Shown here in pieces: positions 1,133 through 51,410 of a stretch of DNA of 64,000 bases. A program made the position numbers and the translations under genes. Where the stretch lies: contig OX597823.1 of assembly GCA_951406725.2 (NCBI GenBank), positions 115,196,001 through 115,260,000 of the forward strand. The letters run 5' to 3'. A model generated the notes under the pieces. It ran no database searches. It was not told the DNA's origin and worked only from the letters and a program-made list of their open reading frames with translations. Origin of the DNA: Octopus vulgaris. Taxonomy: Eukaryota. Position 1 is the first letter of the stretch. Each line of letters starts with the position of its first letter.

Positions 1133-1570
1133 TTTATTTATTTGTAATAACTTGTAAGCACTCATTCGTTTTGTTGTGGCTCATTATAATATAGATCTTC
1201 CCCTGTTGTGTTGGTAGCCCTGACAAAGTTGTAAACCCACGTTTATAACCTCTCCATTTTTATAATGTTATGTGCTTTGCATACTTATTATCAATGCCTT
1301 TAAACAAAATTTAAAGAAGCGAGGCACACAGAAACACAGTGCAAATTTAAATTCAACGGTTATCAAGAATTAGTGTTGCCCTCGGATGGAAAGCTGCTCC
1401 CAGTACTCACAGGCATTGAAAAGATTGACAGACTGGCAATAGTAGTAACTTTTCAAGGCAAGTAGCAATTGTGGAGAGTCCCTGAAATTCCAACATCTTC
1501 AGAAGAACAGCAAGCTATGGCTTTTCTAGTGTCAGCGGATGGTCGAACGCAGCCACCCTTTATGCTTTTT

Positions 1571-4500
1571 ATAAGGCACCGCTGACTATCTATATAAGGC
1601 ACCGTTGACTATCTATATAAGGCACCGCTGACTATCTATATAAGACACCGCTGACTATCTATATAAGGCAGCACTGACTATCTATATAAGGCACCACTGA
1701 CTATCCATATAAGGCACCGCTGACTATCTATATAAGGCACCACTGACTATCTATATAAGGCACCACTGACTATCCATATAAGGCACCGCTGACTATCTAT
1801 ATAAGGTACCGTTGACTATCTATATAAGGCACCACTGACTATCCATATAAGGCACCGCTGACTATCTATATAAGGCACCACTGACTATCTATATAAGGCA
1901 CCACTGACTATCTATATAAGGTACCGTTGACTATCTATATAAGGCACCGTTGACTATCTATATAGGGCACGGTTGACTATCTATATAAGGCACCGTTGAC
2001 TATCTATATAAGGCACCGCTGACTATCTATATAAGGCACCGCTGACTATCTATATAAGGTACCGTTGACTATCTATATAACGCACCGTTGACTATCTGTA
2101 TAAGGCACGGTTGACTATCTATATAAGGCACCACTGACTATCTGTATAAGGCACCGCTGACTATCTATATAAGGCACCGTTGACTATCTATATAAGGCAC
2201 GGTTGACTATCTATATAAGGCACCGTTGACTATCTATATAAGGCACCACTGACTATCTATATAAGGCACCGCTGACTATCTATATAAGGCACCGCTGACT
2301 ATCTATATAAGGCACCGCTGACTATCTATATAAGGCACCGCTGACTATCTATATAAGGCACCACTGACTATCTGTATAAGGCACCGCTGACTATCTATAT
2401 AAGGCACCACTGACTATCTGTATAAGGCACCGCTGACTATCTATATAAGGCACCACTTACTATCTATATAAGGCACCGCTGACTATCTATATAAGGCACC
2501 GTTGACTATCCATATAAGGCACCGTTGACTATCTATATAAGGCACCACTGACTATCTATATAAAGCACCACTGACTATCTGTATAAGGCACCGCTGACTA
2601 TCTATATAAGGCACCAATTACTATCTATATAAGGTACCGTTGACTATCTATATAAGGCACGGTTGACTATCTATATAAGGCACTGCTGACTATCTATATA
2701 AGGTACCGTTGACTATCTAAATAAGGCACCGCTGACTATCTATATAAGGCACCACTGACTATCTATATAAGGCACCGTTGACTATCTATATAAGGCACCG
2801 CTGACTATCTATATAAGGCACCACTGACTATCTGTATAAGGCACCGCTGACTATCTATATAAGGCACCACTTACTATCTATATAAGTTACCGTTGACTAT
2901 CTATATAAGACACCACTGACTATCTATATAAGACACCACTGACTATCTATATAAGGCACCGCTGACTATCTATATTAGGCACCGTTGACTATCTGTATAA
3001 GGCACCGCTGACTATCTATATAAGGCATTGTTGACTATCTATATAAGGCACCGCTGACTATCTATATAAGGCATTGTTGACTATCTATATAAGGCACCAC
3101 TGACTATCTATATAAGGCATTGTTGACTATCTATATAAGGCACCGCTCACTATCTATATAAGGCATTGTTGACTATCTATATAAGGCACCGCTGACTATC
3201 TATATAAGGCATTGTTGACTAACTATATAAGGCACCGCTGACTATCTATATAACGTACCGTTGACTATCTATATAAGGCACCGCTGACTATCTATATAAG
3301 GTACCGTTTACTATCTATATAAGACACCACTGACTATCTATATAAGGTACCGTTGACTATCTATATAAGGCACCGCTGACTATCTATATAAGGTACCGTT
3401 GACTATCTATATAAGGCACCGCTGACTATCTATATGATGCCCCACTGACTATCTATATAAGGCACCGTTGACTATCTATATTAGGCACCACTGACTATCT
3501 ATATGATGCACCACTGACTATCTATATAAGGCACCGCTGACTATCTATATAAGGCACCACTGACTATCTATATAAGGCACCGTTGACTATCTATATGATG
3601 CACCACTGACTATCTATATAAGGCACCGCTGACTATCTATATGATGCACCACTGACTATCTATATAAGGCACCGCTGACTATCTATATGATGCACCACTG
3701 ACTATCTATATAAGGCACCGTTGACTATCTATATTAGGCACCGCTGACTATCTATATGAGGCACCGTTGACTATCTATATAAGGCACCATTGACTATCTA
3801 TATTAGGCACCGCTGACTATCTATATAAGGCACCGTTGACTATCTATATAAGGCACCGTTGACTATCTATATTAGGCACCGCTGACTATCTATATGAGGC
3901 ACCGTTGACTATCTATATAAGACATCACTGATTGTCCATATAAGACACCGCTGACTATCTATATAAGGCACCGTTGACTATCTGTATAAGGCACCGTTGA
4001 CTATCTATATAAGGCACCGCTGACTATCTATATAAGACACCACTGACTATCTATATGATGCACCACTGACTATCTATATAAGACACCGCTGACTATCTAT
4101 ATAAGGCACCACTGACTATCTATATAAGGCACCGCTGACTATCTATATAAGGCACCGCTGACTATTTATATAAGGCACCGCTGACTATCTATATAAGGCA
4201 CCGCTGACTATCCATATAAGGCACCGCTGACTATCTATATAAGGCACCGTTGACTATCCATATAAGGCACCGCTGACTATCTATATAAGGCACCGTTGAC
4301 TATCTATATGATGCACCACTGACTATATATATAAGGCACCGCTGACTATCTATATAAGGCACCGTTGACTATCTATATAAGACACCACTGATTGTCCATA
4401 TAAGACACCGCTGACTATCTAAATAAGGCACCACTGACTATTTATATAAGGCACCGCTGACTATCTATATAAGGCACCGTTGACTATCCATATAAGGCAC

Positions 4501-7298
4501 CACTGACTATCTATATAAGGCACCGTTGACTATCCATATAAGGCACCGCTGACTATCTATATAAGGCACCGCTGACTATCCATATAAGGCACCGCTGACT
4601 ATCTATATAAGGCACCGTTGACTATCTATATAAGGCACCGCTGACTATCTATATAAGGCACCGTTGACTATCCATATAAGGCACCGCTGACTATCTATAT
4701 AAGGCACCGTTGACTATCTATATAAGGCACCGCTGACTATCTATATAAGGCACCGCTGACTATCCATATAAGGCACCGCTGACTATCTATATAAGGCACC
4801 GTTGACTATCTATATAAGGCACCTCTGACTATCTATATAAGGCACCGTTGACTATCTATATAAGACACAACTGATTGTCCATATAAGACACCGCTGACTA
4901 TCTATATAAGGCACCGCTGACTATCTAGATAGGACACCACTGATTGTCCATATAAGACACCGCTGACTATCTATATAAGGCACTGACTATCTATATAAGG
5001 CACCGTTGACTATCTATATAAGGCACCGCTGACTATCTATATAAGGCACCGCTGACTATCTATATAAGGCACTGTTGACTATCTATATAAGGCACCGCTG
5101 ACTATCTATATAAGGCACCGTTGACTATCCATATAAGGCACCGCTGACTATCTATATAAGGCACCGTTGACTATCTATATAAGACACCACTGACTATCTA
5201 TATAAGGCATCGTTGACTATCTATATAAGGCACCGTTGACTATCTATATAAGACACCACTGACTATCTATATAAGGCACCGCTGACTATCTATATATGGC
5301 ACCGTTGACTATCTATATAAGGCACCGCTGACTATCTATATAAGGCACCGTTGACTATCCATATAAGGCACCGCTGACTATCTATATAAGGCACCGTTGA
5401 CTATCTATATAAGGCACCGCTGACTATATAAGGCACCGTTGACTATCCATATAAGGCACCGCTGACTATCTATATAAGGCACCGTTGACTATCTATATAA
5501 GACACCACTGACTATCTATATAAGGCATCGTTGACTACCTATATAAGGCACCACTGACTATCTATATAAGGCACCGCTGACTATCTATATAAGGCACCGT
5601 TGACTATCTATATAAGGCACCGCTGACTATCTATATAAGGCACCGTTGACTATCTATATAAGGCACCGTTGACTATCTATATAAGGCACCGCTGACTATC
5701 TATATAAGGCACCGTTGACTATCTATATAAGGCACCGCTGACTATCTATATAAGGCACCGTTGACTATCTATATAAGACACCACTGATTGTCCATATAAG
5801 ACACCATTGACTATCTATATAAGGCACCGCTGACTATCTATATAAGGCACCGCTGACTATCTATATAAGGCACCGCTGACTATCTATATAAGGCATCGTT
5901 GACTACCTATATAAGGCACCGCTGACTATCTATATAAGACACCACTGATTGTCCATATAAGACACTGCTGACTATCTATATAAGGCACCGCTGACTATCT
6001 ATATAAGGCACCGCTGACTATCTATATAAGGCACCGTTGACTATCTATATAAGGCACCGCTGACTATCTATATAAGGCACCGTTGACTATCCATATAAGG
6101 CACCGCTGACTATCTATATAAGGCACCGTTGACTATCTATATAAGGCACCGCTGACTATCTATATAAGGCACCGTTGACTATCCATATAAGGCACCGCTG
6201 ACTATCTATATAAGGCACCGTTGACTATCTATATAAGACACCACTGATTGTCCATATAAGACACCGCTAACTATCTATATAAGGCACCGCTGACTATCTA
6301 TATAAGGCACCGTTGACTATCTATATAAGGCACCGCTGACTATCTATATAAGGCACCGCTGACTATCTATATAAGGCACCGTTGACTATCTATATAAGAC
6401 ACCACTGACTATCTATATAAGGCATCGTTGACTACCTATATAAGGCACTGCTGACTATCTATATAAGGCACCGTTGACTATCTATATAAGGCATCGTTGA
6501 CTATCTATATAAGACACCACTAACTATCTATATAAGGCACCGCTGACTATCTATATAAGGCACCGTTGACTATATAAGGCATCGTTGACTATCTATATAA
6601 TACACCACTAACTATCTATATAAGGCACCGCTGACTATCTATATAAAGCATCGTTGACTATCTATATAAGGCACCGTTGACTACCTATATAAGACACCAC
6701 TTACTATCCATATAAGACACCACTGACTATCCATATAAGACACCGCTGACTATCTATATAAGGCACCGTTGACTATCTATATAAGGCACCACTGACTATC
6801 TAAATAAGGCACCGCTGACTATCTGTATGATGCACCACTGACTATCTATATAAGGCACCGCTGACTATCTAAATAAGGCACCGTTGACTATCTATATAAG
6901 GCACCACTGACTATCTATATAAGGCACCACTGACTATTTATATAAGGCACCGCTGACTATCTATATGATGCACCAATGACTATCTATATAAGGCACCGCT
7001 GACTATCTAAATAAGGCACCGCTGACTATCTATATAAGGCACCGCTGACTATCTATATGATGCACCACTGACTATCTATATAAGGCACCACTGACTATCT
7101 AAATAAGGTACCGTTGACTATCTAAATAAGGCGCCGCTGACTATCTATATGATGCACCACTGACTATCTATATAAGGCACCACTGACTATCTAAATAAGG
7201 CACCACTGACTATTTATATAAGGCACCGCTGACTATCTATATAAGGCACCGTTGACTATCTATATAAGGCATTGTTGACTATCTATATAAGGCACCGC
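1571..7298. repeat. Tandem satellite, 23-bp unit ATAAGGCACCGYTGACTATCTAT, ~249 copies
   Basis: 23-bp periodicity is directly visible (units start at 1571, 1594, ...), with few variable positions. Confidence 0.98.
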
Positions 7299-7817
7299 TC
7301 TCTATCCTTGACAGGTCCTTGTTATGGAGAACAAGGAGTGGAGAAGTGGGATATAACCGAGAAAATTTTAGCCCTTTGCTGTGATACAACAGCAAGCAAC
7401 ACAGGTCAAGTGGCAGCACAAATCTAGAAAAACTGTTCAATCCCGACCTGTTGTATTCCCCTTGCCGTCATCACATTTTTTAGTTAGTTTTTAGGAGCTG
7501 TTTTGACTCACTGATGGCTGCAAACTTCTGGTCCAGACATGGTATTTTTCAAAAGATTTAGAGAAACCTGGACGAAAATCAAAAAGAGGCTTTACGTAAC
7601 TTGTCGCAATGAAGTGCCTGACGGTGTCCACTCTTGGATTTCTTGAATATCACCTTTCTCCGCAGAAACAGCAGCGAAACGATTACCGAGAATTGTTGGA
7701 GTTAACGATGATCTTTCTTGGTAGCATTCCGAAGAACAGGATATTGTTTCGTACACCAGGAGCTGTAAGTCATGCTAGGTGGATATCAAAAGTAATTTAC
7801 ACATTCAAGATATACCT

Positions 7818-9177: not shown

Positions 9178-9720
9178 TTCTTTTCTACTCTTGGCACAAG
9201 GCCCGAAATTAGGGGGAAGGGAGACAGTGAATTAGATCAACACCAGAACGCAACTGGTACTTAATTTATCGACCCCGAAAGGATGAAAATCAAAAATCGA
9301 CCTCGGTGGAATTTGAACTCAGAACATAAAGACAGACGAAATATTTATTTCTTTACTACCCACAAGGGGCTAAACACTGAGAGGACAAACGGATTAAGTC
9401 AATTATATCGACCCCAGTGCATAACGGGTACTTATATAATCGACCCCGAAAGGATGAACGACAAAGTCGACCTCGGCGGAATTTGAACTCAGAATTTAGC
9501 GGCGAACGAAATACCTATTTCTTTACTACCCACAAGGGGCTAAACAAGGACAGACAAACGGATTTAGTCGATTATATCGACCCCAGTGCATAACTTGTAG
9601 TTATTTAATCGACCCTGAAAGGATGAAAGGCAAAGTCGATCTCGGCAGAATTTTAACTCAGAACGTAACGGCAGACGAAATACGCTCGGCGTGCTAACGT
9701 TTCTGCCAGCTCGCCGCCTT
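9178..9720 (-). mobile_element. SINE family B (head GGCGGCGAGCTGGCAGAAAC), three tandem body units
   Basis: Reverse complement of the family B consensus. Approximate TSD TAGACACATTA(AATATAT). Confidence 0.85.
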
Positions 9721-13101: not shown

Positions 13102-13135
13102 GCACGCACACGCACACACATACAAACACCTGCCA

Positions 13136-13385
13136 CGTACACGGTCTCGCCGTCACCTCAGTGCGCACGTACCGGCTCTCCACGTGATGGTCGGTCGTCG
13201 CACTGCGGCGCGCAGCAGGTGTTCAGCCGGCGAAACTCCACGCTCGAAACGTCATTTCCATCTAAAACTTTCGCTGACCGTTAATCTAATATACTCACCG
13301 TGTACATCCATTGGACTTTTGTTGTTTTTATTTTGTTCTTTTTGTGTGTTTTGTTACTTTTTTTGTTTTGTTCATAGAGTTGTCT
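13136..13385 (+). mobile_element. Degenerate hammerhead-type (Penelope pLTR-like) element
   Basis: CCGGCGA..GCTCGAAACGTC followed by a T-rich tail and (TA)n. Same layout as 31494-31705, but the core is degraded. Confidence 0.4.
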
Positions 13386-14242: not shown

Positions 14243-14311
14243 AGAAATTCCAACTCTGCCTATTTTCATGTTTTATTTATATTCTTTATAATATTAATGT
14301 AGAATATAAAA

Positions 14312-14497
14312 TCGGCCTTTTGGCTAAGATCAATGTGTAGTATCTGTTCTTATCAGCTTAGTATCTGATACTGTCCCTATTTGGGACCATCGATATTAAA
14401 CTGATTTTTAGAACGAGGCGAAGAGTTAGGGGCTTGCTCCACCTTTGCCACGAGTTGGCCTGGTATAGCAGTACTTCCAGGATTCAGCCCACCTCCC
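14312..14497 (+). pseudogene. U2: U2 snRNA retrocopy (lacks first ~8 nt)
   Basis: TCGGCCTTTTGGCTAAGATCA..GTGTAGTATCTGTTCTTATCAG matches U2. It has the branch-site recognition GTAGTA (14337-14342), an Sm-like site ATTTTTAG (~14404) and stem-loop IV CCTGGTATAGCAGTACTTCCAGG. The 5' end abuts MITE sequence, so the native promoter is absent. Confidence 0.93.
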
Positions 14498-14933: not shown

Positions 14934-14934
<1 letters not shown>

Positions 14935-15122
14935 TGACCGCTAGCTCCAAAAGTTGTTTTTTTTTTAATTCTCTCTCTTTATTTCCTCGTGTTCCGTTCT
15001 GTTGAAGATCGTAGGCTCGAAACGTAAAAGACCTTCTCACCTTTCCGTGCGTTAAACAAATACCCCCGTTTGTTGTTTATACACCTGTCTTCGTCTTTTG
15101 CTTATCTGTAAATTTCAACAAT
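14934..15122 (+). mobile_element. Hammerhead-bearing short element, subfamily 2 (diverged)
   Basis: CTGTTGA-A-GATC-GTAG-GCTC-GAAACGTA-AAAGA at ~14999-15031. Homologous to the reverse complement of 25491-25692. Confidence 0.65.
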
Positions 15123-15328
15123 GTATATATATAAATATACATATACATGCATGTATGTATATATTGAAAGTGATCTACTATTGACTAGTTTCCTATCTTC
15201 TTAGGCCAGCATCACAGAAAAATCCTGTGAACAGAAGAGGGGTTTCTTTGTACGTTTGATCAGTGTTGCAGAAGGCTTGACAAAAGTCATGACGATCCCG
15301 ATTTTTTTTTTCTGTCCACAGAAATATT

Positions 15329-15715: not shown

Positions 15716-17100
15716 AAATATCAAAGCCAGCTATAGGTTTGATCGCACGATCTTATGTATACCAATGTTGCGGAATACCTAGATTTACCGATTGCGATAT
15801 AGATCAAACACCACACACTGGTGTACTCGGAGTAGGAAGACAGATTTCCAGAAGATGACGATGGCGACGATGGCGACGATGATGATGAAAGATATAACGA
15901 TGAGGGGGAGGGGGGTTATGGTGGCAGTGATCATGATGACGATGACAGAGGCAAGAGGTAAGAAACCTGAAGTAAAGGCGGTAGAAGATGGAAGATGTTG
16001 TACAGTAAATGATATCTGACTTCCGGCTGTTTATATTGTTGGTATTTGGTTAGATTAAGTCTGTTAATCACTTCTCTCAGTGACAATTAATTGATAATCA
16101 CTTGATACGATTAACATGGTCAATGTATTTATTTATAAGTGGGAGGGTTGTGTGTGGGGGGGTACGGGCGGTGGCAGCAGCAGAGGTGATGGCAGAGGGA
16201 GTGATAGTGGTGGTGGTGGTGGTGGTGGTGTCTCTGCTAGATTGAATTGTTGATGTGGTGTGAGAAGTGAGTAATGGTGTGAAATGTGGATTATCTAAAG
16301 TATTTCATACACACACACACACACACACACAGAGATAGGTACACACATACATACACTGACACATACACACATACACACATGCATACTTGCACTCGTACAC
16401 GCACACATTGGTACAACTTCAGGTACACATACACTTACATATACACAGTTTCACACTCTCACACATACACACTCACTATATATGATTGTGTGTGTGTGTG
16501 TGTGTGTGTGTCTGAGCATGTAAGCTTATTTTTTAGTGTGTACGTGTATGAGAATGCATATGTATGCAAACAATTTATGTGTGTATGAGTGTGAACGTTC
16601 TGTAGGTTTGTGCCCATTGCCTGCTCTGACCCTTCCATTCCTGGAGAGAGGGACAATGCGCATAGCCTTCACATACACACCCTATCACCCCTCTTGGAGG
16701 AATAGCCAATGCCCACGGCCTTCACAAACCCACCACCAACAATCCTGGAGGAAGGAGTAGTGCCGCTGGCTCTTGCAGAGTCTCCGCATTCTGAAGAAAA
16801 GGTTTACTGCCAACGCCTTCACAGACACTTTCCAGTTTACGAAGAAGGACCAACACACATTGCTCGTGGTTTTCATAGATTCTCTAAGTACTGGGGGAGG
16901 GGGCAATACCTGTTACTCGTTGTCAATGGCCCGTTGACCGTTGCCCGTGGCCTTCACTGACGTTTCTAGGTCAGTGAGATCGATTCAGTTGATGTATCTT
17001 TTAAACATTCACAAACCAATGGCTTTATAAAAGGCAAACCGTGGGTAAGAATTGAGTTCCAGTGGTGATATCATATACAGGTTTGTATATGATATCACAT

Positions 17101-20518: not shown

Positions 20519-21483
20519 AAGGCGGCGAGCTGGCAGAAACGTTAGCGCGCCGGGCGTAATGCTTAGCGGTATTTCGTCTGTCGTTACGTTCTGAGTTCAA
20601 ATTCCGCCGAGGTCGACTTTGCCATCCTTTCGGGGTCGATTAAATAAAGTACCAGTTTCGCACTGGGGTCGATGTAATCGATTTAATCCCTTTGTCTGTC
20701 CTTGTTTGTCCCCTCTATGTTTAGCCCCTTGTAAGTATTAAAGAAATAAGTATTTCGTCTGTCGTTACGTTCTGAGTTCAAATTCCGCCGAGGTCGACTT
20801 TGCCATCCTTTCGGGGTCGATTAAATAAAGTACCAGTTTCGCACTGGGGTCGATGTAATCGATTTAATCCCTTTGTCTGTCCTTGTTTGTCCCCTCTATG
20901 TTTAGCCCCTTGTAAGTATTAAAGAAATAAGTATTTCGTCTGTCGTTACGTTCTGAGTTCAAATTCCGCCGAGGTCGACTTTGCCTTTCATCCTTTCGGG
21001 GTCGATTAAATAAAGTACCAGTTTCGCACTGGGGTCGATGTAATCAATTTAATCCCTTTGTCTGTCCTTGTTTGTCCCCTCTATGTTTAGCCCCTTGTAA
21101 GTATTAAAGAAATAAGTATTTCGTCTGTCGTTACGTTCTGAGTTCAAATTCCGCCGAGGTCGACTTTGCCTTTCATCCTTTCGGGGTCGATTAAATAAAG
21201 TACCAGTTTCGCACTGGGGTCGATGTAATCGATTTAATCCCTTTGTCTGTCCTTGTTTGTCCCCTCTATGTTTAGCCCCTTGTAAGTATTAAAGAAATAA
21301 GTATTTCGTCTGTCGTTACGTTCTGAGTTCAAATTCCGCCGAGGTCGACTTTGCCTTTCATCCTTTCGGGGTCGATTAAATAAAGTACCAGTTTCGCACT
21401 GGGGTCGATGTAATCGATTTAATCCCTTTGTCTGTCCTTGTTTGTCCCCTCTATGTTTAGCCCCTTGTGGGTAATAAAGAAAT
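20519..21483 (+). mobile_element. SINE family B with five tandem body units (181-185 bp)
   Basis: Units restart at 20751, 20932, 21117 and 21302. One head only. TATATAGGAAG on both flanks. Confidence 0.92.
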
Positions 21484-21554
21484 ATATATAGGAAGTCTTT
21501 ATTAAGAAAGCAAAATATCATTACAAATGTAGACATTATATATATCTTTTATTT

Positions 21555-25490: not shown

Positions 25491-25491
<1 letters not shown>

Positions 25492-25688
25492 CGGGAAGTT
25501 TTACGAAAATAAACAAAAGACGAAGGCAGGTGGAGTACAAACAAATAATTGTATTAGTATAGCGCTCAGGAATAGAAATAGAAAAAGTCTTTTACGTTTC
25601 GAGCCTACGCTCTTCTACAGAAAGATACACAGAAAAAAAACAAAGAGAGAAAAAAATGCGTGAGGAGCTAACGATCTATCATGGCGTC

Positions 25689-25692
<4 letters not shown>
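25491..25692 (-). mobile_element. Hammerhead-bearing short element in (TA)n, subfamily 2
   Basis: Minus strand 25625-25588 reads TCTTT-CTGTAGA-A-GAGC-GTAG-GCTC-GAAACGTA-AAAGA. Flanked on both sides by pure (TA)n. Confidence 0.75.
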
Positions 25693-30181: not shown

Positions 30182-30618
30182 GGATCTTTTCGGTTTGAAC
30201 GGCAGTTTTTCTAGCGGTGTCATATGAAATTGTCACCCATAATTATGACCCTAGTATCAATCTGCTGCATTTCTATCTGTTTTAGGGTTAGGGTTAGTTA
30301 GGGTTAGGGTTAGGGTTAAGGGTGGGGGGAAGGGTATTTTTTTTCTTCACAAATGTAAATAAACCCAATCTGTTTCTTAAACGAGGGACATATTCATACG
30401 GCACAGAATGTTATTTAGCTCAATAGACGTCATTGATTGGTTGAAATTGCAGAAATTGAAGAAAAAAAACAACAAATACGTTACAAACTATAGAATTTTC
30501 TCAATAAAGCCAAGAGAAAAAGATGTTTTATAAACACATTCTACCAGTATACGAAGTTTAAATTTTTTTAGTTACCTAGAAATTATGTTAAAAACTGCCG
30601 CTCAAACCGAAAAGATCC
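30182..30618. mobile_element. MITE with ~30-bp TIRs (GGATCTTTTCGGTTTGAACGGCAGTTTTT), 8-bp TSD and internal TTAGGG repeats
   Basis: TIRs at both ends and a perfect TSD GAATAATC (30174-30181, 30619-30626). GG termini with an 8-bp TSD are Merlin-like (inference). Confidence 0.9.
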
Positions 30619-31215: not shown

Positions 31216-31493
31216 AAGAGGATTTTTTGTCGAATTTGATATGGGACGAAGTGTATTGGATACATCGATTTCTTAAATTTATTGACCGATTATCATCTCC
31301 TTTGTGTTATTTATATAAGCCTTTTGCATGCTTGAAGTTAATCACGTGTCTACACCATGACCATATTGGATTTCACAACTTTAGTATATAGATCCATATT
31401 GGCAGATAGCTAGATTGATAGATAGATAGATATTTACATATATGTGGGCATACTACACACACGCACGCACCTACACACACATACATACATACA

Positions 31494-31705
31494 TGTGACC
31501 GCGTGTGTATCGTTGGCGAGTTTTTTCCTCCGTCTTCCCTACCTCGGAACTTTCCTCTTTCTATGTTTCTGACGAAGAGCTCAGCTCGAAACGTTAAATC
31601 CTCCTTCTTTCTTTCCTTTCCTGAGCGTCCAATAACACTATACTTGTTCCACATCCTCGCGTTGTTGTGTTTTCTCTTTGAGTTTTCATGTTTGGATTAA
31701 CTTTA
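31494..31705 (+). mobile_element. Hammerhead-bearing short element, subfamily 1 (Penelope pLTR-like)
   Basis: Contains TTT-CTGACGA-A-GAGC-TCA-GCTC-GAAACGTT-AAA and sits in a (TACA)n tract. Homologous to 33432-33617. Confidence 0.75.
31565..31599 (+). ncRNA. Minimal type I hammerhead ribozyme motif
   Basis: CUGANGA and GAAA boxes, 4-bp stem II, palindromic ACGU stem III and a short UUU/AAA stem I. Activity untested. Confidence 0.65.
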
Positions 31706-31727
31706 ACTACATACATACATACATACA

Positions 31728-31758
<31 letters not shown>

Positions 31759-33431: not shown

Positions 33432-33722
33432 TTGCGTTTTCCTCCGTGTTCCCTTCTTTGGATCTTTCTTTTTCCTATGTTTCTGACGAAGAGCTCCGCT
33501 CGAAACGTTAAATCCTCCTTTCTTTCCTTTCCTGAGCTTTCCAATAACACTATACTCGTTCCACGTCCTCGCGTTGTTGTGTTTTCTCTTTGTGTTTTCA
33601 TGTTTGGATTAACTTTATATATATATATATAGTTACTCCAAACATGAACAAAGAGAAAACACAACAACGGGAGGACGTGAAACGAGTATAGTGTTATTGG
33701 AAAGCTCAGGAAAGGAAAGAAA
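33432..33722 (+). mobile_element. Hammerhead-bearing element, subfamily 1, with an inverted partial copy
   Basis: Hammerhead motif at ~33479-33513. 33631-33722 is the reverse complement of ~33520-33613 across a short (TA)n. Confidence 0.75.
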
Positions 33723-34095
33723 TCTCCTGGAAACTGTTCCGAAACGTGCAACAAAGCGAATCCCCGCCGTCAGGCATCCCCCATACTCTGAACGTCTTGC
33801 TTCCCTACGCATGGATACATTGAAGCTGAGAAGCCTGGCAACTGACTTGCTAGACACCCACAAGATTATCTACCATCTTTCCAACAACAACAACAACAAC
33901 CTTGGACACCTTTTGGAAAGGTGTGAAACACTCGTGGACATGGTCATAAAATCAAAAAGCAACACAGCACCCATGACTTTCGGAAGCGTTTTTTCACGCT
34001 CAGAATCGATGAAGCATGGAATAAACTACTAGCTGTCGAGACACTGCATCCTTCAAAACTTCCATGCTTCCTGAAATCCGCCAACAGGACACCTG
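33723..34095 (+). mobile_element. CR1-clade LINE ORF2 C-terminal fragment
   Basis: LETVPKRATKRIP..YSERLASLRMDTLKLRSLATDLLDTHKII and, in another frame, TRGHGHKIKKQHSTHDFRKRFFTLRIDEAWNKL. Confidence 0.85.
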
Positions 34096-34176
34096 GTGGC
34101 TTTTTGTCTTTTTTTTTTAGTGGTAGTGCACCTGAGGACTGTATACAGCAATTTCTTTCATATATATATATATATG

Positions 34177-34712: not shown

Positions 34713-34716
<4 letters not shown>

Positions 34717-34888
34717 AGAATTCACACAAAAAACAAAAGCTGAAGGCAGGTGGTGTGGCCAACAAACAGATGTATTAGTTTAACGCTCAGGAAGTGAAAA
34801 ATTCTTTAACGTTTTGAGCCTACGCTCTTCCACAGAAAGTTACAAGGAAAGAAAAGAACGTGTAGTGAGTAGCGATCTATCATGGTGA
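34713..34888 (-). mobile_element. Hammerhead-bearing short element in (TA)n, subfamily 2
   Basis: Minus strand reads CTTT-CTGTGGA-A-GAGC-GTAG-GCTC-AAAACGTT-AAAG (G12 mutated). Homologous to 25491-25692. Confidence 0.7.
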
Positions 34889-50127: not shown

Positions 50128-50745
50128 AAGGTGGCGAGGAGCTGGCAGAAACGTTAGCACACCGGGCGAAATGCGTAGCCGTACATCTTCTGCTGGGCGG
50201 CGAGCTGGCAAGGGCGGCGAGCTGGCAAGGGCGGCGAGCTGGCAAGGGCGGCGAGCTGGCAAGGGCGGCGAGCTGGCAAGGGCGGCGAGCTGGCAAGGGC
50301 GGCGAGCTGGCAAGGGCGGCGAGCTGGCAAGGGCGGCGAGCTGGCAGAAACGTTAGCACGCCGGGTGAGATGCTTAGCGGTATTTCGTCTGTCGTTACGT
50401 TCTGAGTTCAAATTCCGCCGAGGTCGACTTTGCCTTTCATCCTTTCGGGGTCGATAAATTAAGTACCAGTTACGCACTGGGGTCGATGTAATCGACTTAA
50501 TACCTATGTCTGTCCTTGTTTGTCCCCTCTGTGTTTAGCCCCTTGTGGGTAATAAAGAAATACGTATTTCTTCTGCTGCTACGTTCTCAGTTCAAATTCC
50601 GCCGAGGTCGACTTTGCCTTTCATTCTTTCGGGGTCGATAAATTAAGTACCAGTTTCGTACTGGAGTTGATGTAATCGACTTAATCCCTTTGTTTGTCCT
50701 TGTTTGTCCCCTCTATGTTTAGCCCCTTGTGGACAGTAAAGAAAT
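50128..50745 (+). mobile_element. SINE family B with duplicated head, 17-bp tandem stutter and dimeric body
   Basis: Partial head at 50128-50194, (GGGCGGCGAGCTGGCAA)8 at 50195-50330, then a complete element and a second body unit. Confidence 0.9.
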
Positions 50746-51410
50746 ATATACTCACTGCTGTATGTGTATAAAATCTAACTAAAAGCGATTTTTTTTGCTT
50801 TTATAAATGTAAATTAGATTTTTGCCCAAGACTCTTATGTTTTAGAGTTAATATTATTCCCCCTCTTAAACGTGGATGCTCTGTTCGGAATACTGCCTTT
50901 GTCGCTAGTACACAAACACACACACACACGCGCACACACACGCGCACACACTCACACACTCACACCACAAAGAGCTTTTTTCAAATCGTGTTATCTTCAC
51001 AGGAACATTAATGTTTCCCCCACAAGTGTCAAGTTACTTTGTTTTAATTATATTTTCATTAATTGACTTTTGACCCTACCTTTTTTTTTTGTTTGGTCAC
51101 GTGAATGGATTTTGCGTCCAATATCAATATTTACTACTTCAATTTACAGGGAATTTTTTTCTTTTCTATTTCTCTCTCTCTCTCTATTCTTTTTTCCAAT
51201 GTTCTTTCCAGAGATACCTGTTGTACATAACACCTGGCGCTGACACATTACCAGTGAAGTGAACATGTGCTGTAATACATAATTTATGTCAGGTCTGTTC
51301 GTGTCTGTTTGTCGGCATATCTTTAATATTATACAACACAACAAACTTTTGATTTCCACCGTACATTTCGGTCAATGCTTTATCAATTCTCTTTTCTTGA
51401 GATAGTAAAT

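Follow-up and report, generated by a model that had tools for sequence, protein, structure and literature searches.

The window, that is, the whole 64-kb stretch of Octopus vulgaris DNA analyzed here, contains short repeats that are solo pseudo-LTRs (pLTRs) of two protein-coding families of Penelope-like elements (PLEs) of the Neptune/Nematis type, designated A and B. The genome containing the window comprises 2.8 Gb in 227 contigs. The initial annotation had placed five elements and a degenerate sixth one correctly, and the layout that it described (a hammerhead motif followed by roughly 100 nt rich in U and then by (TA)n or (TACA)n) is present in each of the five; an inverted partial copy at 33628-33722 had been overlooked. 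The features are as follows.

13227-13385, forward strand: decayed copy of an older third family (C), with the 3' hammerhead box present and the 5' box lost
14934-15123, forward strand: diverged family B solo pLTR, motif at 14999-15026 with U6 and a broken stem II
25491-25692, reverse strand: solo pLTR of PLE family B, flanked by two (TA)n tracts
31493-31705, forward strand: solo pLTR of PLE family A, beginning some 103 nt before the predicted cleavage site
31569-31595, forward strand: minimal type I hammerhead motif with canonical core, matching the published descriptor, predicted cut after 31595
33437-33617, forward strand: solo pLTR of family A, hammerhead motif at 33483-33509 with canonical core
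33628-33722, reverse strand: incomplete family A copy in inverted orientation, meeting 33437-33617 tail-to-tail at a short (TA)n
34713-34887, reverse strand: diverged family B solo pLTR, motif at 34808-34835 with U6 and G12 replaced by A

The 3' end of the family A copy at 31493-31705 abuts (TACA)n at 31708-31757, and the same family A sequence also flanks ORFs at three other loci (L235, L240 and L241). Its motif has an extra A between positions 9 and 10.1, a 4-bp stem II, a 4-bp stem I formed by 31565-31568 and 31596-31599, and a palindromic ACGU where stem III would be. The inverted partial copy begins some 9 nt past the predicted cleavage site and has two variants in common with its neighbor at 33437-33617 that are absent from the 31493 copy. 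The family B motif at 25593-25620 has an A6U core, a 5-bp stem I and a 4-bp stem II, and family B sequence as in this copy flanks intact ORFs at four loci (L242-L245). Identity was 91% for the family A pair of the window and 74-79% among its three family B copies.

The published descriptor of minimal hammerheads (stem I of at least 3 bp, CUGANGA(+1), stem II of at least 3 bp, GAAANNUH; PMC4209133, supplementary Fig. S7) was matched by two of the six window copies, and a third differed by A6U alone. When the window was shuffled 100 times with dinucleotides preserved, neither these two A6 matches nor the single match to the U6 version of the descriptor had any counterpart, and the matches in the window are therefore not due to chance. 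The hammerhead cores that had been annotated are canonical (CUGANGA) only at 31569-31595 and 33483-33509; the three family B copies carry CUGUNGA, a change that had gone unmentioned. Further, stem II was said to be kept as GAGC/GCTC, which is incorrect for the 14934 copy, where GATC replaces GAGC. Since stem II is broken in this copy and G12 is lost in the 34713 copy, both fall outside even the U6 version of the descriptor. The degenerate element, annotated at 13136, does exist, but its 5' core box is lost and it had no BLAST match to family A or B. Family C relatives of 13227-13385 were 72-85% alike (39 of 40 scored), and the approximately 100 bp upstream of this copy (13126-13226) were mostly dissimilar to them. 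An Rfam scan of the window returned no hammerhead among 130 matches at E<=1; its microRNA matches were rejected as microsatellites and the 33437/33628 inverted pair.

A tblastn search of the 64 kb using two PLE proteins detected no PLE coding sequence, and the coding parent therefore does not lie within the window. Elsewhere in the genome, reading frames encoding a reverse transcriptase (RT) together with a GIY-YIG endonuclease (EN) were found for both A and B, and the repeats of both are joined to such frames upstream, which bears out the link to PLEs that the initial annotation had suggested. Some copies run upstream through a low-complexity stretch toward the coding region, and same-strand RT/EN homology was present upstream at 5/30 long B loci and 1/6 long A loci. 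In a protein search with the B frame, 83 of 88 scored frames (the best 88 of 14,717 candidates) had no internal stop, and the median identity of 20 B-type copies across the RT region was 99.2% (190 pairs). One B-type frame of 968 aa starting from ATG (L172) encodes RT with a C-terminal GIY-YIG in a single frame. The B repeat flanks the frame on both sides in 4/4 fetched full-length copies, about 4.4 kb apart. In family A, the RT and GIY-YIG domains lie in broken frames of 239-626 aa (seven frames measured, all broken); of 16 A-ORF loci, 13 have the repeat downstream and 3 have it on both sides. Terminal repeats of full-length copies were 183-1,267 bp long. The presence of the ~200-bp sequence on both sides of full-length copies identifies it as a pLTR. 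Thus, A and B each form the terminal repeat of a separate element that codes for RT and GIY-YIG, and the proposed separate non-autonomous system is not supported. Identification as solo pLTRs agrees with the attribution of dispersed single motifs to truncated PLEs by Cervera and de la Pena (2014, PMC4209133).

Both the A and the B protein contain DKG, YIDD, a CX4CxxC linker and GIY-CxxC-YIG, and a CX2-5CxxC linker occurs in 104/120 homologues. Judged by DKG, the linker and the CxxC in GIY-YIG, the parents carry the marks of Neptune or Nematis PLEs. One older B copy scored slightly below the Pfam cut-offs (RT, 28.7 vs 29.6; GIY-YIG, 18.9 vs 22.6). Public collections contained 592 homologues with RT-type domains, with identity up to 59%; a PDB search gave no match, and NCBIfam gave only weak RT and intron-endonuclease matches under the cut-off. 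Contigs from four presumed-RNA runs cover the young B element, in a form from which strand, starts, ends and circles are unreadable.

Two candidates were rejected as parents or full-length elements. A family of 781-aa GIY-YIG proteins, which headed the Pfam search, has its own repeat and its own hammerhead, and any A or B sequence at its loci belongs to unrelated insertions in the flanks. Two A copies spaced 3.2 kb from each other (L155) had the look of a full-length element but stem from a local duplication that contains an assembly gap. The 781-aa proteins (L152-L154; e.g., L154 984-5860) belong to a distinct PLE family of young age, in which another ORF precedes the 781-aa frame and many of these frames are intact, and its hammerhead has a U3-A8 covariation and a six-base palindromic stem III. 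One intact B element (L242/L172, G000:C2:77212500-77220500) has terminal repeats that are 82% alike and belong to different subfamilies; it is probably a recombinant or the product of a template switch. AT-rich, asparagine-rich RT-like frames unlike those of A and B were observed near A copies (L166 5386-7903 and L165 5411-6109).

Across the genome, the A motif matched exactly at 3,855 sites, the B motif with U6 at 15,730 and the B motif with A6 at 180, and reversed-motif controls gave none. In 40 evenly spaced 10-kb stretches of the genome (399,900 bases), 14 copies were present, or one per 29 kb, which corresponds to approximately 98,000 copies genome-wide (Poisson interval 54,000-164,000, from 14 copies in a sample of ~400 kb). 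The elements are thus abundant and, with most ends joined to (TA)n, microsatellite-associated, as had been proposed; the proposed density of one per 11-13 kb describes the window (about one per 11 kb) but not the genome sample. Searches of the genome with its own copies recovered dispersed copies with 92-96% identity (best 40 of 1,281 and of 1,962 candidates).

Conservation among copies was examined at the level of single columns. As the initial annotation had expected, the motif was less variable than its flanks: non-CpG column divergence was 0.040 vs 0.083 in 88 A copies and 0.023 vs 0.090 in 97 B copies, differences that may be inflated by BLAST seeding. We avoided this bias by picking copies by their downstream sequence alone (83 B and 84 A). 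In these B copies, position 6 was U in 81/83, position 7 was C in 42, U in 26, A in 8 and G in 7, position 17 was A in 65, U in 17 and C in 1 and never G, and the other core positions were conserved in 76-83 of 83. Family B therefore has stems I and II, G8-A9, G12-A13-A14, A15.1-U16.1, H17 and a free position 7, but lacks the CUGANGA core of a minimal type I hammerhead. Family A had A6 in 83 of 84 copies, with U at position 4 in 65 and C in 19; five additional A matches by downstream sequence had no motif upstream.

In 13 hand-picked lineages, stem II was paired in 13/13 and stem I was 69% paired. Covariation of the stems exceeded that of 500 shuffles in these 13 related lineages, a result that relatedness by itself can produce. 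Minimum-energy folds of family A, as monomer or dimer, did not recover the hammerhead. The sequence of the motif predicts a self-cleaving minimal type I hammerhead like those of PLE pLTRs. Eighty metagenome loci from outside this genome (269 kb) contained eight A6, six C4 and one U3-A8 motifs and no U6 core, and U6 was therefore probably derived in this lineage. Family C, an older A subfamily (three loci) and relatives in other organisms (four loci) have C4 cores (CCGANGA). Two loci from the sampled genome stretches (L260 and L262) contained yet another family of minimal hammerheads, in which stem II has 5 bp and the loop 10 nt.

The 3' ends of the copies were fixed about 100 nt past the predicted cleavage site. 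A (TA)n of at least four units lay within 14 nt of the 3' end in 56/86 A and 51/79 B copies, compared with a background of 4.2% of random positions. The remaining ends were at shorter TA-type repeats (21 A and 9 B), internal (3 A and 8 B) or at other sequence (6 A and 11 B, some of the latter being anchor mis-hits). In all full-length copies examined (3/3 A and 4/4 B), the upstream repeat continues as TATATA exactly at the point where the short copies end. The repeat of the 781-aa PLE family likewise ends at an internal TA tract. These positions suggest that a nicked genomic (TA)n primes on the UA tract inside the transcript. At the commonest A junction, two T of the internal tract are missing, and pairing of the primer would therefore be imperfect. 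A tract of the TATATA type has been proposed as a TATA box in rotifer Penelope (PMC3846280), and the tract described here could instead have that function. In family B, an initiator-like word, TCACT, lies about 25 nt after the TATATA tract.

The 5' ends are given relative to the predicted cleavage site, with negative values upstream. Among 39 copies picked regardless of their 5' ends, 23 started at -130 to -80, three farther upstream, 11 at -80 to -30 and two downstream, and none within -5 to +5. The 5' ends are concentrated 80-119 nt before the predicted cleavage site. A second set of 60 copies (40 B and 20 A, the B copies being enriched for a young subtype) was picked by motif, by hand from the first 100 listed matches on the C1 chromosome. 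Starts at -125 to -80 were found in 17/20 A and 17/40 B, at -200 to -125 in 0/20 A and 3/40 B, and beyond -200 in 2/20 A and 10/40 B. The 5' wall was therefore weaker in B, in which 13/40 reached past -125 and 10/40 were shorter than -80; these short B starts are probably due in part to alignments that end against the reference in diverged subfamilies.

A 27-mer located just upstream of the A wall had 87 exact matches, compared with 3,855 for the A motif. Since 13 ORF-linked copies matched the two sequences exactly at similar rates (3 and 2), we estimate that about 2% of A copies are long. Four short B copies starting at -108 to -115 were 98.6-100% identical to an intact element. Many A copies begin on TCATTC, which we take to be initiator-like from the general consensus. 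In 6/7 full-length copies, the 5' repeat reaches past -125 (one extends for 1,267 bp with 99.8% identity), and a tandem or circular template or repeated jumps, rather than plain run-off, would therefore be needed to generate these repeats. The commonest two diagnostic haplotypes of A and of B each include short and long copies, which favors by-products of coding elements in this small sample (87 and 76 copies); one A haplotype had five short and no long members.

The shared 3' end at the TA tract, together with a 5' pile-up away from the cleavage site, best fits run-off on an uncleaved transcript. We therefore propose, with a probability of roughly 0.7, that the short repeats, as solo pLTRs of the two PLE families, arise when RT primes at the UA tract of the uncleaved transcript and runs off its 5' end. 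The membership of the parents in the PLEs is established by the ~200-bp unit of each family on both sides of a frame for RT with C-terminal GIY-YIG, and copies do stop where the full-length upstream repeat goes on as TATATA, most of them joined to genomic (TA)n. The following steps would complete the process. The endonuclease would nick (TA)n, and the nicked strand would pair with the UA tract and prime synthesis. The transcript would start on an initiator-like sequence, TCATTC in A and TCAGAT in young B, some 110 nt before the predicted cleavage site, and this start would set the 5' wall. Synthesis from the UA tract, near the 5' end of the uncleaved transcript, would yield a run-off product of about 210 bases. 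Longer copies would form when synthesis is primed at the downstream repeat or jumps between the redundant repeats. The motif itself would be a hammerhead that is dimer-dependent, slow or protein-assisted, and its cleavage would be unnecessary for the insertions.

Related elements supply precedents for several of these steps. In Poseidon, a PLE, reverse transcription initiates internally near the pLTR-ORF junction on uncleaved RNA, and the hammerhead cleaves only with protein (PMC11167929); transcription of Drosophila Penelope begins within its upstream repeat (PMC2377424). The green anole element Poseidon_Ac (Frangieh et al. 2024, PMC11167929) shares with A and B a fixed 3' end inside the transcript and AT-rich targets, and the uncleaved RNA would be the substrate in A and B as it is there. 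The start site of Poseidon_Ac lies in the ORF and is non-homologous to the target (PMC11167929), which counts against UA-tract pairing, whereas that of A and B would lie in the 5' UTR at a UA tract matching (TA)n.

It is unlikely that the short copies propagate themselves in the manner of SINEs, with an internal promoter and (TA)n, their transcripts being copied in trans by the PLE protein; of the alternatives, this one comes closest to what the initial annotation proposed. The approximately 2% of A copies that appear to pass the wall and the A haplotype consisting of short members only would accord with such propagation. Further, pLTR sequences sufficed for trans-mobilization in a rotifer (PMC3846280), and it has been argued that retrozymes derive from pLTRs (bioRxiv 10.64898/2026.07.22.740005). 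However, the mixing of short and long copies in the two commonest haplotypes of each family and the near identity of young short B copies to an intact coding element point to the coding elements as the source, and the position of the wall with respect to the motif is the same in all subfamilies, which is what a common template geometry would lead one to expect.

Somewhat less likely still, the solo repeats could be remnants of recombination between pLTRs or products of plain LINE-like 5' truncation. Recombination or deletion has been proposed for rotifer solo pLTRs (PMC3846280), and the B copies that extend beyond -200 form a tail of longer, variably cut copies as truncation would produce. However, recombination should leave solos equal to the 5' repeats, most of which reach past -125, whereas the solos stop at -80 to -119; truncation is opposed by the absence of A starts in the well-alignable interval from -200 to -125 (0/20), compared with 17 in the next 45 nt. 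A pause site of RT at -110 would also mimic the 5' wall.

The unit is very improbable as a non-LTR retrozyme, in which a ~200-nt RNA cut by tandem hammerheads would be circularized and copied by a rolling circle: it does have a type I hammerhead and a length inside the range reported for retrozymes (51-972 bp; bioRxiv 10.64898/2026.07.22.740005), but Tandem Repeats Finder detected no array of the unit in the window, a coding parent is attached, which speaks against a retrozyme, and canonical hammerheads in tandem repeats mark retrozymes and minimal ones mark PLEs (PMC7229834). Two adjacent B copies do occur at two loci (L039/L040 and L284); in each pair, (TA)n separates the copies, whose 5' ends or subfamilies differ, and the pairs therefore look like serial insertions and not arrays. 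Instead of the tandem copies that the initial annotation suggested looking for, the unit occurs as dispersed singles, and, with no head-to-tail arrays and no start at the predicted cleavage site among 39 copies, there is no indication of ~200-nt circles.

A and B were compared with systems described previously. With the minimal hammerheads of metazoan PLE pLTRs (PMC4209133), they share the type I order, the extra base between 9 and 10.1, G10.1-C11.1, a palindromic 15.2-16.2 without a loop, a short stem I and a U-rich 5' flank; in both, most copies are single, dispersed and from truncated PLEs, and some form close pairs on opposite strands. An Acropora entry in the supplement of that study is almost identical to the family A motif. 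In contrast, U6 of family B lies outside the descriptor and is absent from the examined rows of the alignment there, and C4 in an A subfamily and in family C is a further difference. The word octopus had no match in the searched files of PMC4209133. The consulted part of an octopus repeat annotation describes recently active Penelope families and mentions neither hammerhead nor ribozyme (PMC13282606).

With Neptune and Nematis PLEs (Craig et al. 2021, PMC8557442), A and B share the order of RT followed by GIY-YIG, DKG, a CX2-5CxxC linker, the cysteines of GIY-YIG, pLTRs, partial tandems and the targeting of microsatellites. They differ in a long low-complexity 3' UTR (~0.8 kb in B and at least 1.4 kb in A) and in a very high number of solo repeats. 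Animal non-LTR retrozymes likewise are short non-coding units with a type I hammerhead related to pLTRs (PMC7229834; bioRxiv 10.64898/2026.07.22.740005); these form tandem arrays without a coding parent, whereas the A and B repeats are dispersed single ends of coding elements (PMC7229834). The natural A6C hammerhead of phage Bcep176 is also changed at core position 6 (PMC3088659, PMC7151607). However, it is a single, slow and Mn2+-preferring case, whereas U6 is the rule in at least 15,730 family B copies. A6U is absent from the consulted text of both papers. The literature searched contained no description of octopus PLE hammerheads and no natural CUGUNGA/A6U hammerhead; work on PLE hammerhead variants may already cover core variants, and the novelty of U6 is therefore provisional.

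The class of element is thus already known, and the main result is a correction, in that the repeats are ends of coding PLEs and not a new ribozyme retroelement system. A and B provide a test system for an open question, namely, the role of the PLE hammerhead. In particular, young B elements with intact frames and a fixed change at core position 6, at which C slows cleavage, would allow cleavage to be separated from mobility. Further, the ends of the short copies, which are sharp and number in the tens of thousands, may record in the genome the points at which reverse transcription begins and ends. They also suggest that the targeting of (TA)n by Neptune-type elements may rest partly on base-pairing, beyond the endonuclease linker.

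It is possible, but in our judgment doubtful, that selection has maintained the U6 core in no fewer than four subfamilies and over tens of thousands of insertions, as either an active variant or a retained RNA signal. As an active variant, the core would need the PLE protein or an unusual metal; as a signal, a hammerhead-shaped RNA would have been kept for protein binding or dimerization after cutting was lost. If, in addition, primer and template pair at the internal UA tract, the ~210-bp solo repeats would correspond in PLEs to retroviral strong-stop DNA, and the transcript start and the priming site could be mapped straight from the genome.

Several other features were observed in the window. 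At 1570-7306, a 23-bp unit is repeated about 250 times as a satellite (89% matches). A full-length match to U2 snRNA (14306-14497, forward strand, 153 bits) lies just after a long (TA)n; its 5' end is altered and it has a one-base insertion, and it is probably a pseudogene. Tandem arrays of one repeat family are located at 9252-9683 (169-bp unit, 2.5 copies), 20569-21484 (185-bp unit, 5 copies, 98% matches) and 50380-50746 (184-bp unit, 2 copies), and this family resembles an octopus SINE. Beside the inverted A copy, a degenerate coding-like fragment at 33723-34110 had no Pfam match; we take it to resemble the 3' part of a CR1/L2 LINE. A short interstitial TTAGGG repeat is present at 30282-30323.
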